DNA from: a virus
Lineage: Duplodnaviria > Caudoviricetes
Strand: one strand, 5' to 3'
Virus record (IMG/VR): IMGVR_UViG_3300020577_011395
Span: 1 to 64,000 of that record
Length of the DNA stretch: 64,000 bases
Shown here: one piece after another, positions 23,601 through 31,006 of the stretch
Numbering within the stretch: the stretch's first letter is position 1
How the letters are laid out: every line of letters begins with the position of its first letter
The notes under the pieces: generated by a model
What the model was told of the DNA's origin: nothing
What the model saw: the letters and a program-made list of their open reading frames with translations, nothing else
The model's database searches: none
Translations under genes and position numbers: made by a program

Positions 23601-24111
23601 GAGATAGGTGCCAATATGGTAGGCTGTATAGGAGCTGGTATAGTAGGAAGAAGGGGAGTGCCAAAAACCAGCTAAAAGGGGGCAGATTTCTGCAATTCCC
23701 ATGCCAACCTATTAAGCCCAAATTGATTAACAATCAAGCCTAAAACAGCCATTCTATGAATCATCATAACTGTGTTGAGCACAAATGTGTTAAACAAACA
23801 CAATATTAATTTTAATATTGTTACCTGGACACGTAGTACCCCTATGGTATCATATCACTACTGGTCCTACTGGCTCTTGTCTTACACACAATCATAGATC
23901 TCAAAAACAACAAAAGAAAATCTATCTGAGACAATAGACAATGTGAAAGAATCAGCATGATTTTGATGTATTCTCAAAACTGCTGTCTTTACTAAAAGAG
24001 GCAGACATGACCAAAATATATATAAGCATGTCACCCAACTCTATATAGGCAAAGAACAAAGGCGGCTAGTTTATCAAATCTATTAGTTGTTGTCAAGGGG
24101 TAACTTGGGAC

Positions 24112-24484
24112 TTGACACCATAGATGGGGTATGGTACACTGTACAGGGCGGCTACTATCGCTATATACCCCAGCATATAAGTAAATGTAGAATAGGTGGT
24201 CATCTAAATATTATTTGTTCTTCCATGACCACTGACCAAGTATGCAGGTGGTCCCTATACCTATTGACAAGGGGTGTCCGTTGTGCTATGGAAAAAAATA
24301 CTTGACACAGCCTGTCCGATCAGGTACACTATATAGGGGAGGAATAGGGCGGCTAGCGAGGCAACTTGGCACTTGACAGCGGGTGTCCGGTCTGCTACTC
24401 TGTATCTGGGGAAGTGTGGGCGCACGAGCCGCCGTAAGTATTAAAAATATTTCGATTGACAAGATGGTAGGGTGGTGGTATAAT
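24112..24484 (+). promoter_or_regulatory. five tandem sigma70-like promoters
   Basis: TTGACA at 24112, 24264, 24302, 24373 and 24456, each 17 bp from TACACT / TATGGA / TACACT / TACTCT / TATAAT. Confidence 0.75.
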
Positions 24485-24529
24485 AGCCGCCGGTTTTTTA
24501 AAAAATCCTATTATGCACATATACAAAAA

Positions 24530-24575
24530 CAGGTTCAGGGAGCTACCCGGTTAGGTAGCTCCCTGAACACTTGTC
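24530..24575. terminator. strong hairpin, probable terminator of the 24589-24990 gene
   Basis: GTTCAGGGAGCTACC / GGTAGCTCCCTGAAC inverted repeat; A-run at left gives a U-tail on the minus strand. Confidence 0.75.
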
Positions 24576-24588
24576 TAGCTTCTACCGA

Positions 24589-24990
24589 TTAGGCCGTGGC
24601 AGCGGCCTTTTCGGCCTTCGCCTTGGCGATCGCCTCCGCGCGACCCTTGCATTCCTCCGCGTATTCGTTCAGGAGGGACTGGGCGAAATCGGAATCCAGC
24701 GTTCCACCATCCGCCACGACCTTGAGCGCATCGGCCATGCGGCTCTTGAGCGTAACCGACGCACGCTCCTGCGCTTCCGGTTTTTCACCGGCGGGGAAAT
24801 ACCCGCCTTCCTTCCCGCGCCCGCTCTCGATCAAGTTGCAATCGACCGCGAGCTGGATATCCTTCGGGTGGAAATTCAGTTTGTATTGCAGGACACCCTT
24901 CGGGCAACCGCGCGCATTCTCCGCCACGTACTCACGAACCGCCTTGGAAATGTCGAGCGCCTTTTGGTTGACCTTGATCGTATCGCCCAT
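24589..24990 (-). CDS. winged-helix DNA-binding protein (Rrf2-like wing)
   Basis: LIESGRGKEGGY resembles the Rrf2 wing SxRGxxGGY; GC-rich codons; Ala/Lys tail. Confidence 0.6.
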   Translation of the reverse strand: MGDTIKVNQKALDISKAVREYVAENARGCPKGVLQYKLNFHPKDIQLAVDCNLIESGRGKEGGYFPAGEKPEAQERASVTLKSRMADALKVVADGGTLDSDFAQSLLNEYAEECKGRAEAIAKAKAEKAAATA

Positions 24991-25569
24991 GTTTCTATCC
25001 ATCCTTTTCATTCCGGCCTTTGGCCGTTGTCGTTAGGGAGTCATTCCCTTTCGACCGTTCTGTTGTCTCACAGTACCGACCCAATGTCAACCTGTGAGCG
25101 ATCTTTTTCTTTCCTTTGTAGACACCTTCGCTTGCGTTTGGTGGAGTCTGTTGTCTCACACTCTCTAGAGCGTGTCAACCCTTGTCTTTGGAGCCGCTTT
25201 CGTTCAGCGCGCCCTTCCGACCCATTGATAGTCTCACACTATGCCAAGGGTTGCAAGTGTCATTGTGTGTGGCACGATGCCTCGGCGCGCGGCTGGCACC
25301 AGCGGGCGGCTATTCTAGCATACCTGTTCTGGGTGTCAAGTAGCACCGGGATCGAGCCGCCAGACGCTTGACAAGCCATGACCTGCCTGCTAATATAGTG
25401 GGGGGGGTCTAAATGGCGGCTGAGCTTACTATAATAATAGTACCAGTATAGCTCAGCCGCCACCACTTGTCAAGTCAGCCGCCCTGCGGGCATAATGCCC
25501 CCGTAGAACGTGCTTGCATTCTTATCCACGTCCTGTATAGTGGGCACACACAAGCAAGGGAGACACAAA

Positions 25570-25785
25570 ATGGTTGACAGGCAAAAGATTTTGGAGTTAG
25601 CATCGGGAATGCGGAGCGGCAATAACCGTTTGCGTATGGGGCAGAGCATTTTCAACGCTGCTTATTCCCTGCACCCGGTCGAAACAAACCATTGTCAGTT
25701 TGTCAAGGGAATTGATTGTTTCTACAATGACAGCAAGATTGAAGCCTTTTTGAAGGTTTTGGAGGAAACAAACAATGTCAAGTGA
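25570..25785 (+). CDS. hypothetical protein
   Basis: GGAG RBS; RMGQSIFN...DCFYNDS pattern. Confidence 0.65.
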   Translation: MVDRQKILELASGMRSGNNRLRMGQSIFNAAYSLHPVETNHCQFVKGIDCFYNDSKIEAFLKVLEETNNVK

Positions 25786-25954
25786 AAACAAGTGTGAAGC
25801 CTGTGGGGCGGAAACGGATCATGGCGCGGTCAATGGCGACGGATGGGTTGCGCTTTGCCCGGAATGCGCTTATGCTATGGGTTCGCCTCCCGAATTGACT
25901 GCGGAGGAACAAAAAGAAATGCAGGAATGGCTTGCACTGAACGTTGACACCTAA
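25775..25954 (+). CDS. 59-aa Zn-finger protein (not in ORF track)
   Basis: GGAGG RBS; MSSENKCEACG...LCPECAY. Confidence 0.6.
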   Translation: MSSENKCEACGAETDHGAVNGDGWVALCPECAYAMGSPPELTAEEQKEMQEWLALNVDT

Positions 25955-26016
25955 CCCGCACTGTGGTCTAACCAATGGGTCGGAACACTCCGACCCACCA
26001 CGAAAGAGAGAAAAAA

Positions 26017-26271
26017 ATGTCAATCAAATCGCGTAAGGATACCGCCAGTCCTTTTCATGTTGGTGGCCCCGTTCCCAAAACGCGCGAACAAGTCATCCGT
26101 GAAAACTTCAATTACCGTATGAAGCAGATTCAGCAACCCACGAAAGCACTTGACATGTTGCGGGAAACAGGCTTTGGTTCCTACCTTCAGGTCGATTTGA
26201 CCGAAGCAGTCTGGGGCGAAAAAGAAAAGCAGCTTGACGCGCTTGACAACCTGCTTTCGACCAAGCTGTAG
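26017..26271 (+). CDS. hypothetical protein
   Basis: ORF downstream of a TTGACA site. Confidence 0.55.
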   Translation: MSIKSRKDTASPFHVGGPVPKTREQVIRENFNYRMKQIQQPTKALDMLRETGFGSYLQVDLTEAVWGEKEKQLDALDNLLSTKL

Positions 26272-26634
26272 CAGGTTGACAGACCCCGGAGAATCCGCTA
26301 ATATAGGGATTCAAAGGGGCGGCTGTTCGCGCACACCCTATAGGTATATCGTATCAGAGACAGCAGGACGAGTCAAGATATATTCTTCCCTATCGACAGG
26401 CAGCGTCCGGTGTGCTACTGGCAGGAATCCCTTGACAGGCTCCACCGAATTTGATACTGTATAGTGGGGGGTCCGTTCGTGCGGCTGGGATGCAAACAAT
26501 AAGCAATCAATAATACCATATCACAGCCGCCGTGCTCTGTCAAGAGTCGATTTACCCCACTGGTAGGGTGGTGGAGGGGCGCTTGACAAGTTATTCGGAG
26601 TGTTCTACTGTCACAGCAATAGGAGGCAACAAAC

Positions 26635-26901
26635 ATGGAAGCAAAACGGAAGTATGTCGTTCAACCAACATCGGCCGAAATGAGGGAAAAGAACCCTTAC
26701 AACCAATTTCAATTGGTTGCACTGAATGACGGAAAGCTGGAAACCGTCATTTGCTACGGTTACAGGGAAAGCAACCTGCAGGTAATTGCAGACAAGCGGA
26801 ATGCAGACCACGAAAGCACGTATGAAACCGTGGTCCGAAAGGAAAGGGAAGTCTCTCAGCCTATCACAGAACAGGTTGAAGCGCAAGTAGGGGAAACCTA
26901 A
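26635..26901 (+). CDS. hypothetical protein
   Basis: AGGAGG RBS; promoter TTGACA-17-TACTGT upstream. Confidence 0.65.
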   Translation: MEAKRKYVVQPTSAEMREKNPYNQFQLVALNDGKLETVICYGYRESNLQVIADKRNADHESTYETVVRKEREVSQPITEQVEAQVGET

Positions 26902-27274
26902 AAAAGAAATTGACATTCGCCTGCCTTCCTGCTAATATAGGGGAATGGCAGGCGGCTGCGTTTCACACTCTCCAAGTGGAGCCTACCAGAAAGGACGGCA
27001 AGCGTCAACAAGTATTATTCCCTATAGACATTACCCGTCCTCTTTGCTATGCAACATTATGGTTGACATAGGGTGTCAGGTTTGATATACTGGAGGGGGC
27101 TGGCACGACAAGCAAGAAAATATAACTTGACTTCAGCCTATAGGGATGATATAATAGCCGCCCGTTTGAAGCATATTGCACAAACACTGCTGCCCGACCA
27201 GCTAAACAGAGCTGGTCGGGCAGGGTTAGGGTCTATTTAGGTAGGTAACCCCGTTAGGGGAAGCTGCTGACAAT

Positions 27275-27570
27275 CAGGTTTAGGTTCCTCCCGCACCTTC
27301 TGCTGCTTCTAGCATGCTCTCTTTTGCCGTTCTGTTTCTGAACCCTTCCCACACCACACTCTTTGTTTCACTTGGGGGCCACTGTGTTGTCACGGGTCTT
27401 ATTGACATTGCCTGTGTTTGACAGTTTCGGCGCTTTGTAAATGAAACGGAGAGGGTTTGTGAGGGAAGGGCAACTTGGTTTCCCGGTGGTAGTTTCGCTA
27501 GCAATCCATTTGTGTTCGCGCCTTTGCTAGTCGGCGCTTTAATTGCCGGGTGGAATTGTGAACCTCCTGT
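27275..27570. ncRNA. candidate ~300-nt structured RNA
   Basis: closing pair CAGG..AGGTTC / GAACCT.CCTG; long internal stem CCCTTCCC..CTCTTTGTTTCA / TGAAACGGAGAG..GGGAAGGG; no convincing ORF. Confidence 0.4.
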
Positions 27571-27914
27571 CTATCTATGTTGTTTTTTGTTTCGTGCAAC
27601 CCGTCTTGCCCACTCAACATACAACATCCTGCCCACACGTCAAGCGACAGCTAGTGGCTTTACGCCCCACCGGGCGGCTATCTGCCACCCCCTTGACATT
27701 GACCCCTAATGTGGTAGGGGGTCTTCGTGTGCACCGATATTTGACAGGTCGCGTCATGTGTGTTAAAGTTCAAGCCGCCAGTATAAGGCTCTGGCGGCTG
27801 CTTCTTGTCAAGCACCCACCTACCACTACCTAATAGCCGCCAAATCAACTTGACAGCCGCCATTTGCCCACCCTCCGTATTGGCAGGGTGGGCGGTAGAT
27901 GGGTGAAAGTTTTT

Positions 27915-28091
27915 TTACTTGTTGGTATTGATGAAATTCTCCAAGAGGTTGGTATGCTCCACACGGGCGCAATTGATCTCGTTGTACACCTTCTCCAGTT
28001 CTGCATTCATGTCGTTGATACGCTCTTCCAGGATGGCCCGCTTCCTTTTCAGATCACGAAGATTGTAAACAGCGATAATGATCTTATCCAT
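27915..28091 (-). CDS. small coiled-coil protein
   Basis: AGGAGG RBS; heptad-like pattern. Confidence 0.6.
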   Translation of the reverse strand: MDKIIIAVYNLRDLKRKRAILEERINDMNAELEKVYNEINCARVEHTNLLENFINTNK

Positions 28092-28191
28092 TGTGTTACC
28101 TCCTATGCAGGGGTTGAGAGCCTGCAATCTGGGTTACACGTTGGGAGGGGCGATATTTTGCCCCTCCCTAACGCCCCTCACCTAGTAGGAG

Positions 28192-28611
28192 TTATTCCCT
28201 ATCATCGAGATAATCGTTTTTCGTTTCCATGTATTCCATGTACCATTCTTCCTCATTCCAGTGTTCATACGGGCGGGCCATACGCGCACCGTAGTGGGAG
28301 AGCAATTCTTCAATAGCACTCTTACGGTCGATCCGGGCTTGTGCGTCCGCCTGTTTCTTTTTGAGATGCGCAGCCTGTTCTGCCTCAGTCATTTCGGCCA
28401 TGAATTCAGCCTCAATCTCCGCATCCACTTCCCGATCCTCCCGCGAACGGAAGGACCGCGCCTCATCCTCATTGTGGAGGATGTTCCACTTGCTGGCGAG
28501 TTCCTGAACGATATCCTGCTTTGCCTGACAGACACCGCAGGTTTCGCCAGTTTCCTCGCACGTCTGGCAATCAGACGTGCCTTCAAAGACGACAGAGCGA
28601 TTGTTCGCCAT
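28192..28611 (-). CDS. acidic Zn-finger hypothetical
   Basis: CQTC..CGVC followed by a Glu-rich helical region. Confidence 0.65.
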   Translation of the reverse strand: MANNRSVVFEGTSDCQTCEETGETCGVCQAKQDIVQELASKWNILHNEDEARSFRSREDREVDAEIEAEFMAEMTEAEQAAHLKKKQADAQARIDRKSAIEELLSHYGARMARPYEHWNEEEWYMEYMETKNDYLDDRE

Positions 28612-29045
28612 GTTGTCCCCTTTGCGCCATAGGCGCATGAGAGTTTGCTTCGCCCATCCCAATGACAGGCAGAGCCATAGCTTTTGTAAACAGGTGTGGC
28701 TTTTTTCTTTTCAATGATCCTCAGCGACCACCTGCGTTCAGTGCGTCGTTGGTGAATGCATCCTACATGAGCCATCACAGGTGTCAAGCAGCAGGCGTAT
28801 AAGCCGCCTTGTAGGCACCAAGGCGCTCCCACTTGACAGGATCTCCTAATATGGTAGGGGGTCTTCACACGTACCAATATTTGACAAGTCGTGTGGGGTT
28901 TGTTAGAATTCAAGCCGCCGTATATAAAGAGCGGCGGCTGCTAACCAAGTCAAATGCCCCTATCCCCCTCCTATCAGCCGCCTAATAGTTGACAGCCGCC
29001 TGTGACCCCACCCTATCTAAGCGGTGGGGTCGGTAATGGGTTTGA

Positions 29046-29288
29046 CTACCAAGAACCGTATCGAATTGTCCCCCGGTTATAGAGAGCGGTGATACGCTCT
29101 TTCAAAACCGGTTTGACTTTCAACCATTCCTCCTCGGGGATATCGTTGTATTCCCAAGTGAAGTTACCGAACGACGCCGAAACGTGTTCGCGGGTTGGAA
29201 GGCCAGTACCTTTGATGACATCACCGATCAAATCACTGGGTCGGGGATATCCTGGTTCGCAGTCCAACTCAATCGTCTGAACAGCCAT
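29046..29288 (-). CDS. hypothetical protein
   Basis: AGGAGG RBS before MAVQTIELDC. Confidence 0.65.
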   Translation of the reverse strand: MAVQTIELDCEPGYPRPSDLIGDVIKGTGLPTREHVSASFGNFTWEYNDIPEEEWLKVKPVLKERITALYNRGTIRYGSW

Positions 29289-29427
29289 CGTACTACCTCC
29301 TAGGACAGGGCGCTCACAATGATAATAGTCAGGATGACCACCATCACAAACAATTCGATTGCATCTTCGATCATTGTTCCTCCGTGCCCCACCGCCTATC
29401 GTAGCACGGTGGGGCATTCAGGGTTGA

Positions 29428-29748
29428 CTACTTGCTGAGGAAGTTTTTAACGGCCTTCACAGTCGAAACGTGGGGGCGATTGATCTTGACATTCAGCACA
29501 CCCGGCGAGTGCCGGGTGAACTCGATTCGGTGGTTCATCGCGCTAACCACCGTTGCTTTCCGCCCGTTGATGAAGATTGCAAAACCCTTACCCGACCGCA
29601 CCACCGGATCGGGGTATTCCCGGTCAATGAATTCCTGAATGAACTCAACCGCCTTCCCGGTATCCATTGACCAGTAGATCGAAAAGAGAAAAGCGATTCC
29701 CGACAGGTTCATCGGGTAGGACCACTGCGTCATACGCTTGCCCTTCAT
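29428..29748 (-). CDS. hypothetical protein
   Basis: GAGG RBS. Confidence 0.6.
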   Translation of the reverse strand: MKGKRMTQWSYPMNLSGIAFLFSIYWSMDTGKAVEFIQEFIDREYPDPVVRSGKGFAIFINGRKATVVSAMNHRIEFTRHSPGVLNVKINRPHVSTVKAVKNFLSK

Positions 29749-29857
29749 GGTACACCTCTTAGGGGAATAGTCCCCCTTGTATCCCTGCCTGAATGGTCAG
29801 GGAATGTTGGAATCTTTTTCTTTGTTTGTCTGCTATTGCCTAGGTGGGCGGTTAGGG

Positions 29858-30187
29858 TTAGTCGTAGAACGGCTTTTCAAGCGGGAGGTATGCTCCCTTA
29901 TCTTCCCCGATCACCCATTCCTCTCCCTTGCAGGCCATGAGTTTAATGAAGTAAAGCAATTTCGCAACCTTGATCCCTGCCTTGGGATCACGCGGGTCAA
30001 TCACAACCCCGTGGCCCAATCGTTCATAGGTGTCATAGTACCAACCCCCTTCCTCCGGGCCACCATATGCACGGCCCATCAAATAGCAGGCGAGACGGGT
30101 CTTACGGGTCGGAATAACACCCCAAACCCTTTTCTTTTCTTTCCACTTAGTACCGGGGAGGGTAAACATCCCCACAAGTTTTGCCAT
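29858..30187 (-). CDS. hypothetical protein with YGGPEEGGWYY motif, flanked by a 28-bp inverted repeat
   Basis: ORF; inverted repeat 29824-29851 / 30196-30223. Confidence 0.65.
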   Translation of the reverse strand: MAKLVGMFTLPGTKWKEKKRVWGVIPTRKTRLACYLMGRAYGGPEEGGWYYDTYERLGHGVVIDPRDPKAGIKVAKLLYFIKLMACKGEEWVIGEDKGAYLPLEKPFYD

Positions 30188-30266
30188 TTGATACTCTGCC
30201 CACCTAGGCAATAACAGACAAACTTTCTACCAGTGCCTTTGCCCGACCATCGCGGTTAGTTGTTTA

Positions 30267-30515
30267 TTAGTAGCAATCCGCTGAAAGCGTAACCTTCAAT
30301 CCGCTTTCGTGTTCCAATTCCCTTGTCACTTGGGTGACAAGCTCCATCCGCCCAAACCTTTCGACAAGCGTTGAACCGCTTTTCACTCGCAGGCCGACGC
30401 CCATCAATCCAACCGTTGCAGTTTCGAGACGTTGCAAACCTTCCTCCATTGTGCAGAAGGTGGTGCGGACATTTTCCTTACCCCGAAAGACCATCCTGGA
30501 AACAAACTTTGCCAT
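30267..30515 (-). CDS. hypothetical protein flanked by a 27-bp inverted repeat
   Basis: GAGG RBS; inverted repeat 30227-30253 / 30529-30555. Confidence 0.6.
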   Translation of the reverse strand: MAKFVSRMVFRGKENVRTTFCTMEEGLQRLETATVGLMGVGLRVKSGSTLVERFGRMELVTQVTRELEHESGLKVTLSADCY

Positions 30516-31006
30516 GAGCATTCCTCTGGCAATGGTCGGGCAAAGACACTGGTAGCTATTCACTTGTCAAGGATCTCAAGGACCGCCTTGGTGCAGCGCG
30601 TCGTTTGATGAATGAATCATACACTAACCATTCAAGGTGTCAAGCAAGGTTGAACCTTTTGTTTGTGCAAGCCGCTTTGTTTTGTTTGCAACAGCCGCAA
30701 CCAAACCACTTGACCTAGCGCGTCGTTTGTGTTATTGACCCCTCCCCCTCTCCCCTAGGGGTTGACAGGGGGGCGGAAATCATGTAAGATGAAAAAGCGC
30801 TTTTTCGGGAAGGAAGAGCATAGGTCGTTCTTAAACCCCGTCCCAATTTTCAAGATTTTTTTTATTGCCTATATGCAGCCTCGTTATCCCTTCCAATTTT
30901 ACAGTTTTTTTATTGCCCCTATACAACCCCTTCCATCCTTGCTACCCTATCATAGTTTGCTACCCTTGTCTCCCTATCAAATATTAAAAAAACAATATTG
31001 TTCTGC

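Follow-up and report, generated by a model that had tools for sequence, protein, structure and literature searches.

Two adjacent genes at the head of a phage operon are each enclosed by their own pair of long, nearly perfect inverted repeats, and the units delimited in this way act as cassettes: among close relatives the unit around one gene (ORF1) is either present or absent, and the slot around the other (ORF2) can hold a swapped gene. Judged by the pattern of sequence variation, the repeat arms are under purifying selection and hence, by their conservation, functional. The best-supported reading, to which we give a probability of about one half, is that the arms would pair in the transcript as long-range RNA stems and serve as substrates of host RNase III. 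The DNA analysed here, referred to as the window, is a 64-kb stretch forming the start of a 129-kb IMG/VR record, which is a fragment with a CheckV completeness estimate of 40%.

Two promoter-proximal genes are bracketed by inverted repeats

The phage has a GC content of 30-37% (~32%), 29 tRNA genes and long arrays of small paralogous genes. The sole GC-rich stretch of the record, at 24000-30900 with ~50% GC, carries the bracketed genes at its right end, where the genes lie on the minus strand. Thirteen related contigs (L075-L087, from Logan and ENA assemblies of separate runs) show 82-98% DNA identity to this island. They were found via homologues of ORF2 (79-85% identity), of ORF1 (one 96% copy, in an ENA contig) and of the 106-aa gene that comes next in the operon (88-98%). 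Since these relatives align and one of them continues from the island into the AT-rich paralogue array, the island can be considered a stable part of the lineage and not an assembly chimera. No match was found in viral or metagenome contig collections for the arm patterns or the 106-aa protein, nor in a phage collection searched with the DNA.

The operon is headed by a sigma-70-type promoter-like site on the minus strand at 30616-30643 (TTGACA, 16 nt, TATGAT; 11 of 12 consensus positions). This sequence is unchanged in the relative L085, and its predicted start near 30608 leaves a leader of ~50 nt before the first arm. A diverged copy of the promoter module is located at 28749-28790, with repeated promoter modules present elsewhere in the island. 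In mRNA sense, the leader is followed by the 5' arm of the second repeat pair (IR2; 30529-30555), which lies 13 nt ahead of the ORF2 start codon with a GAGGA ribosome-binding site in between, then by ORF2 itself (30267-30515; 82 aa, an ORFan) and by the IR2 3' arm (30227-30253), which begins 13 nt past the ORF2 stop codon. A linker of only three bases (AAA in mRNA sense; 30224-30226) separates this stem-closed unit from the next, made up of the IR1 5' arm (30198-30223; 10 nt before the ORF1 start codon and identical in the relative L079), ORF1 (29858-30187; 109 aa) and the IR1 3' arm (29824-29849; beginning 8 nt past the ORF1 stop codon). All of these features are on the minus strand, as is the 106-aa gene (29428-29748), which is not stem-bracketed, served as the anchor for relatives and tree, and is followed by further genes. 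Each arm pair encloses exactly one minus-strand gene together with its ribosome-binding site, and both of the genes concerned are the promoter-proximal ones. The arms lie wholly in untranslated spacer, overlapping neither a coding region nor a ribosome-binding site, and no terminator-like site was found between them.

The repeats had been described in an earlier note on this DNA, and both a repeat search and our own scan recover them around one gene each. IR1 pairs 29824-29849 with 30198-30223 (26 nt, 1 mismatch, 96% complementary, 348 nt apart), and extension to 29851/30196 gives 28 nt with 2 mismatches. IR2 pairs 30227-30253 with 30529-30555 (27 nt, 2 mismatches, 93% complementary, 275 nt apart). 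The chance expectation for a repeat of such quality within 1.5 kb is ~1e-4 per whole 129-kb record. Read on the plus strand, the three mismatches of the 26- and 27-nt stems are without exception C/A, which makes them G-U on the coding (minus) strand. The fourth mismatch, which comes with the extension of IR1 to 28 nt (pair 27), reads G/T on the plus strand. This agrees with the earlier count of three G-U-compatible mismatches in four. Each arm is found once in the record, and comparison of the IR1 and IR2 arms by eye gives only ~9 matching positions in 26.

A systematic scan around the island genes, which the earlier note had proposed as a check, brackets these two genes only. Apart from IR1 and IR2, which stood well clear of all other pairs in quality, our scan of the full 129-kb record yielded no strong inverted repeats that bracket a gene, and neither this DNA-level scan nor a scan for RNA duplexes in the flanks of ten island genes revealed further bracketed genes. 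A candidate signal at a 139-aa gene was traced to a local GC-rich hairpin with no long-range stem. With only two of ~ten island genes bracketed, the stems do not amount to a general processing scheme for the island.

Two weaker complementarities were observed in the same region. The first is an inverted repeat (25215-25229 with 25971-25985; 15 nt, 1 mismatch) around the plus-strand small genes of the island. It is kept in the relative L077 and has a core, CCGACCCATTG, similar to that of the ORF2 arms (CCGACCATYG); by our estimate, chance would give ~0.4 pairs of this kind in the island. The second, also of 15 nt with 1 mismatch, relates the operon leader (30580-30594) to a site 1750 nt away, just upstream of the next promoter copy (28815-28829). 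It would enclose the whole operon, and is also present in L085 (249-263 with 1569-1583).

The enclosed genes have few recognisable relatives. Neither ORF2 nor ORF1 matches a Pfam family at E 0.1 or better, ORF2 has no PHROG match, neither ORF has a clear match to the S23p family (PF05635), and no Rfam family matches the region. Nothing usable on function came from Pfam, PHROGs or the ESM Atlas for either ORF. ORF2 is nevertheless a real gene, because its third codon positions vary far more than the first and second. ORF1 contains a short conserved motif at residues ~32-55 (GGPEEGGWYYD) that is common to many phage proteins. It matches phrog_30656 with E 7e-7 and has homologues in 69 viral loci. 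None of these 69 loci has brackets around the ORF1-family gene; the inverted repeats present at these loci are either palindromic hairpins in repeated copies or lie around non-coding regions. Hence the stem belongs to the operon position and not to the gene family.

The two units share motifs at their inner boundaries, namely CTAACC immediately preceding the 3' arm and (C)AGAG immediately following the 5' arm (30254-30266; 29850-29857), and both ORF2 and ORF1 begin with ATGGCAAA. On the plus strand, a near-consensus promoter-like site at 28881-28909 (TTGACA, 17 nt, TAGAAT with TG) is aimed into the 3' end of the operon and could yield an antisense transcript over the bracketed genes. A 145-codon open frame (29777-30214, plus strand) runs antisense to the whole ORF1 unit, with no convincing start signal seen. 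Further downstream on the minus strand, a GC-rich local hairpin behind the 106-aa gene (29386-29415) is followed by a 24-codon hydrophobic mini-ORF, MIEDAIELFVMVVILTIIIVSALS (29300-29374); in L086 this position holds another hydrophobic mini-ORF, about equally long. Upstream of the 106-aa gene (29760-29800, minus strand), the hairpin CCCTGACCATTCAGGCAGGG is changed to CCCTGTCATTCAGACAGGG in L078 and L080. As these changes lengthen the stem, the impression is of a local hairpin, in RNA or DNA, that is maintained ahead of the ribosome-binding site.

The ORF2 arms are conserved and can pair on the mRNA strand

Conservation was assessed on seven distinct sequences that carry the ORF2 allele of the window. 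It was found that only 5 of 54 arm positions vary (2/27 in the 5' arm and 3/27 in the 3' arm), compared with 44/200 in the leader, 16/76 in the downstream intergenic region, 10/16 in the post-stop spacer and 24, 17 and 57 of 82 at codon positions 1, 2 and 3, respectively; the ribosome-binding-site spacer is invariant (0/13). Near-neutral sites, i.e. third codon positions and the post-stop spacer, therefore vary at 63-70%, and the arms differ from them with Fisher p = 1e-12 and 4e-5, respectively. The difference from other non-coding DNA is smaller, with the arms still somewhat more conserved (p = 0.03 for the leader and 0.09 for the downstream intergenic region).

The variation that does occur in the arms leaves the predicted ORF2 stem largely intact, with 99.5% of alignment cells pairing on the mRNA strand. 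Of its 27 pairs, 22 are invariant and four vary on one side only, always from A-U to G-U or from C-G to U-G; in addition, a terminal pair is disrupted in a single sequence. When the IR1 mismatch is included, all five internal departures from Watson-Crick pairing are wobbles on the sense strand and mismatches on the other. This sense-strand bias has p ~0.004 on the five events, or ~0.04 if two broken terminal pairs are counted, under the assumption that ~1/3 of random substitutions keep sense-strand pairing (with an assumed ~65% of transitions). The pattern is suggestive of selection on the transcribed strand. The earlier note had gone further, taking the mismatches as a sign of selection on RNA and not on DNA. 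In favour of this, all in-stem variation is one-sided and gives G-U on the mRNA strand. However, compensatory two-sided changes occur at 0 of 27 pairs, such that strict covariation is absent and the statistical support for RNA over DNA is modest. In addition, G-T wobble is tolerated in a folded single DNA strand too, which counts against an RNA-only reading.

The bracketed units behave as cassettes

The cassette behaviour of the two units is new information beyond the earlier note. The ORF2 slot holds a different gene in L085 and L086. In these contigs, identity to the window is 87% over the stretch from promoter through leader to 5' arm (27/27 in the 5' arm), 97% over the 3' arm plus the preceding 11 nt (26/27 in the 3' arm) and 89% in the downstream region. 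In contrast, no DNA similarity to ORF2 is seen in the 231 nt that the arms enclose, with homology stopping 2 nt inside the 5' arm and restarting 11 nt before the 3' arm. This insert codes for a 79-aa protein and has a ribosome-binding region of its own, unlike that of ORF2. BLASTP gave no alignment of the 79-aa protein with ORF2; hhalign aligned the two end-to-end with 30% identity and E 0.039, which suggests that the 79-aa protein is probably a very distant ORF2 allele. A profile search of 1.84 billion representatives placed the ORF2 family in only two clusters, which correspond to the ORF2 form and the 79-aa form. The presence of the same arms around a different gene indicates that the ORF2 arms are a constant frame outliving the enclosed gene.

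The ORF1 unit is found in the window and at the same site in L079 and L087, which hold its only other copies, and is missing from 11 of the 13 related contigs. It comprises 397 nt (29830-30226, minus strand), made up of the linker, the IR1 5' arm, ORF1 and 20 nt of the IR1 3' arm. The 11 empty contigs read ...CACTGGTAG-ACAAAC-AAAG..., with an extra 4-nt deletion at the empty junction in the subgroup L078 and L080-L082. The filled site, GGT-AGA-AAGTTTGT...GCAATAGC-AGA-CAAAC, begins GGT-AGA-AAG and ends GC-AGA-CAAAC, and the empty site is GGT-AGA-CAAAC. The two are thus related by a 3-nt microhomology (AGA) that makes the junction position ambiguous by 3 nt. No target-site duplication is seen on comparing filled and empty sites, and the outer 6 nt of the distal IR1 3' arm (ACAAAC, 29824-29829) are kept in the empty ones.

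The arm remnant and the AGA microhomology are as left by a deletion across the base of a hairpin and favour loss of the unit; a random insertion would match the ACAAAC remnant once in 4096. A tree of the downstream 400 nt, in contrast, favours gain, or exchange by recombination, as the empty L085 and L086 form the outgroup and the filled sequences fall within a well-supported clade alongside empty ones. The ORF2 alignment is visibly mosaic, which points to frequent recombination. Whichever the polarity of the ORF1 indel, the unit gained or lost is the stem-closed unit to within 3-6 nt.

Gene turnover was also observed elsewhere in the island. In the relative L075, ~235 bp replace the ~1.4 kb between 27869 and 29285, which include the 139-aa gene and a 58-aa gene. 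The ends of this replacement fall in a duplicated intergenic module (27692-27900 and 28832-29040), which suggests turnover by direct-repeat recombination, as in the promoter-early stem-loop (PeSL) regions of T4-type phages. For PeSL cassettes, shuffling by homologous recombination has been proposed (PMC2839356). The bracketed units are comparable in that regulatory sequences within a hyperplastic region of non-essential ORFans mark the joints of insertion, deletion and replacement among close relatives. However, PeSL is one repeated promoter-plus-terminator module with recombination between direct copies, whereas here each gene has a unique inverted pair and no repeated module is located at the joints.

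The cassette polymorphisms raise the question of whether the arms act in DNA, as halves of integron-like hairpin sites or as the terminal repeats of small non-autonomous mobile cassettes. We consider this unlikely, though still credible. The ORF1 unit is a discrete presence/absence element with limits close to its arms, L085 has a different gene between near-identical ORF2 arms, the arm sequence differs from unit to unit, as is the case for attC sites, and the strand-specific wobble tolerance would fit a folded single DNA strand as well. Like integron cassettes, the units are promoterless, contain a single gene, and lie in one orientation behind a common promoter; like attC sites, each has its own imperfect inverted repeat, with structure kept over sequence and one strand favoured. 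In integrons, however, the two attC arms are adjacent to each other at the cassette's 3' end and do not flank the gene, and both core sites and integrase are absent here. The outer ends of the arms (GTTTGTC/GACAAAC for IR1 and CTACCAG/CTGGTAG for IR2) do not match the attC core sites RYYYAAC/GTTRRRY. PF00239 and PF00589 have no match in the 129-kb record (a fragment), in which no tyrosine or serine recombinase, and hence no integron integrase or invertase, was found. Besides being single-copy in the record, the arms are absent from the viral and metagenome collections searched. Furthermore, the lack of target-site duplication, the 3-nt microhomology and the 6-nt arm remnant resemble illegitimate deletion or recombination more than site-specific exchange, and ordinary homologous recombination in the conserved, 85-97% identical flanks is enough to move the ORF2 and ORF1 alleles and so can explain both polymorphisms.

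A candidate RNase III processing pathway

If the arms act as long-range RNA stems cut by host RNase III, one polycistronic early transcript would start at the promoter-like site (30616-30643, minus strand) and run through both repeat pairs. The arm pairs would form stems of 26-27 bp in vivo, each looping out one unit of ribosome-binding site, ORF and stop codon. A near-perfect helix of such length would be cut by the host enzyme and, by analogy with the 23S rRNA intervening sequence (IVS) of Coxiella, cleavage of both stems mid-helix would yield individual ORF2 and ORF1 messages. In each, the inner half-helix of ~12 bp would hold the 5' and 3' ends together, with possible effects on stability or expression, and the downstream genes would be severed from both messages. 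As the arms are constant while the enclosed genes turn over, they would also frame a gene slot, with genes exchanged between the same ORF2 arms and the ORF1 unit moving together with its arms.

Structure prediction is consistent with stems on the transcribed strand. For the two duplexes, energies of -52.9 and -50.6 kcal/mol are predicted on the minus strand as against -44.5 and -48.3 kcal/mol on the plus strand, the minus-strand duplexes being the more stable. The predicted fold of the 751-nt minus strand contains both long-range stems in the MFE as well as the centroid structure; the plus-strand fold is similar, but bulged at the C/A positions. At 26 and 27 bp, the stems exceed the 22-bp helix of the idealised E. 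coli RNase III substrate (PMC3867540), an E. coli criterion that may not be that of the host. In B. subtilis, most natural targets of RNase III are helices formed intramolecularly over long distances in mRNA (PMC11780869), which the predicted phage stems resemble. No RNase III gene was found in the 129-kb record, and the host enzyme would therefore be needed.

The closest geometric match is the 23S IVS of Coxiella burnetii, a 428-nt ORF-bearing element with a 28-bp closing stem that is cut mid-stem by RNase III (PMC4990558), and it is by analogy with this element that cleavage is proposed for the phage stems. Both are elements of 300-450 nt with one small ORF and terminal inverted repeats forming a stem of ~28 bp with one mismatch. 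In both cases presence is sporadic and the stems mark the cassette boundaries, and the IVS has long been suspected to be mobile. The IVS differs in that it sits in rRNA helix 45 with an ORF (of the S23p family) that is probably unexpressed, whereas the phage units lie in an mRNA operon behind a promoter-like site and have their own ribosome-binding sites. The excised IVS RNA of Coxiella is short-lived and not especially stable (PMC4990558), so that end protection of the phage messages would not be guaranteed.

A second parallel, as far as the account in PMC6582327 goes, is found in the leader-trailer helices around 16S and 23S rRNA of rrn operons, which are cut by RNase III. According to the same account, the flanks pair over hundreds of nucleotides, one double-strand cut frees each product, and successive stems are adjacent, as they are here. 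The products predicted for the phage are instead protein-coding cistrons of 82 and 109 codons, and no boxA-like antitermination signal was seen in the leader. The inferred cutting of a phage early operon into single messages by host RNase III would also be in line with the early polycistronic mRNA of T7 (PMC3867540). T7 sites, however, are local intergenic hairpins with internal loops and single cuts, in contrast to the near-perfect helix formed here by the flanks of the same gene.

The earlier note also raised the possibility of circularised single-gene mRNAs, for which we find no support. The two ends left by RNase III lie on different strands of the helix, and neither an RNA ligase nor an RtcB gene was found in the record.

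Stems that form in RNA yet act without RNase III, either by clamping the 5' and 3' ends of the cistron with consequences for translation or decay or by insulating the folding of the swapped gene, are in our view distinctly unlikely. They share the folds, conservation, pairing and energies of the RNase III reading. Hok-type mRNAs, which fold back on themselves, provide a model for end clamping. Pairing between the 5' and 3' UTRs furthermore controls translation of icaR (PMC3868564). However, near-perfect helices of 26-27 bp, longer than the 22-bp substrate, would be hard to keep uncut where the enzyme is present, and the ribosome-binding sites lie outside the stems, such that direct occlusion of initiation is not apparent.

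It is improbable that the repeats are functionless by-products of gene acquisition, such as remnants of past insertions. This would fit the bracketing of only two genes, and the enclosed genes are ORFans of a kind with quick turnover; it does not account for arms that vary much less than the neutral sites next to them and have been retained where the enclosed gene was replaced. Site-specific inversion between the arms, which would switch each gene off and on relative to the promoter and corresponds to the DNA-level alternative of the earlier note, fits the geometry (26-27-bp inverted repeats around 275-348 bp) but is very improbable, given one orientation in 14 of 14 independent assemblies (the window and 13 contigs; assemblies, not reads), no invertase gene found in the record, no core sequence common to the two pairs, no convincing opposite-strand start signal in the ORF1 unit (the only unit read), and a strand-biased G-U pattern that is not expected at an inversion site.

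Discussion

A literature search found no paper describing gene-bracketing stems for phage protein-coding genes. We tentatively propose, while leaning somewhat against it ourselves, that stem-closed single-gene units may be a widespread and undescribed build of promoter-proximal early phage operons, in which each accessory gene would be carried within an RNA helix of its own, host RNase III would cut out end-clamped messages and the arms would provide a portable or constant frame for gene exchange between phages.

Should the stems indeed be RNase III processing sites, the logic of rRNA maturation would be applied to protein-coding early genes. Each fast-evolving accessory gene would bring its own cut-out-and-clamp signal, and a gene newly brought in could be expressed predictably regardless of its neighbours. 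Engineered operons use synthetic RNA-processing insulators, which offer a parallel for the stem-closed genes. Such a role would furthermore explain why the joints of gene turnover are located exactly at the arms. The arms could serve to locate exchangeable early genes in uncultured phages, and such exchangeable early genes are often candidates for host takeover or anti-defence.
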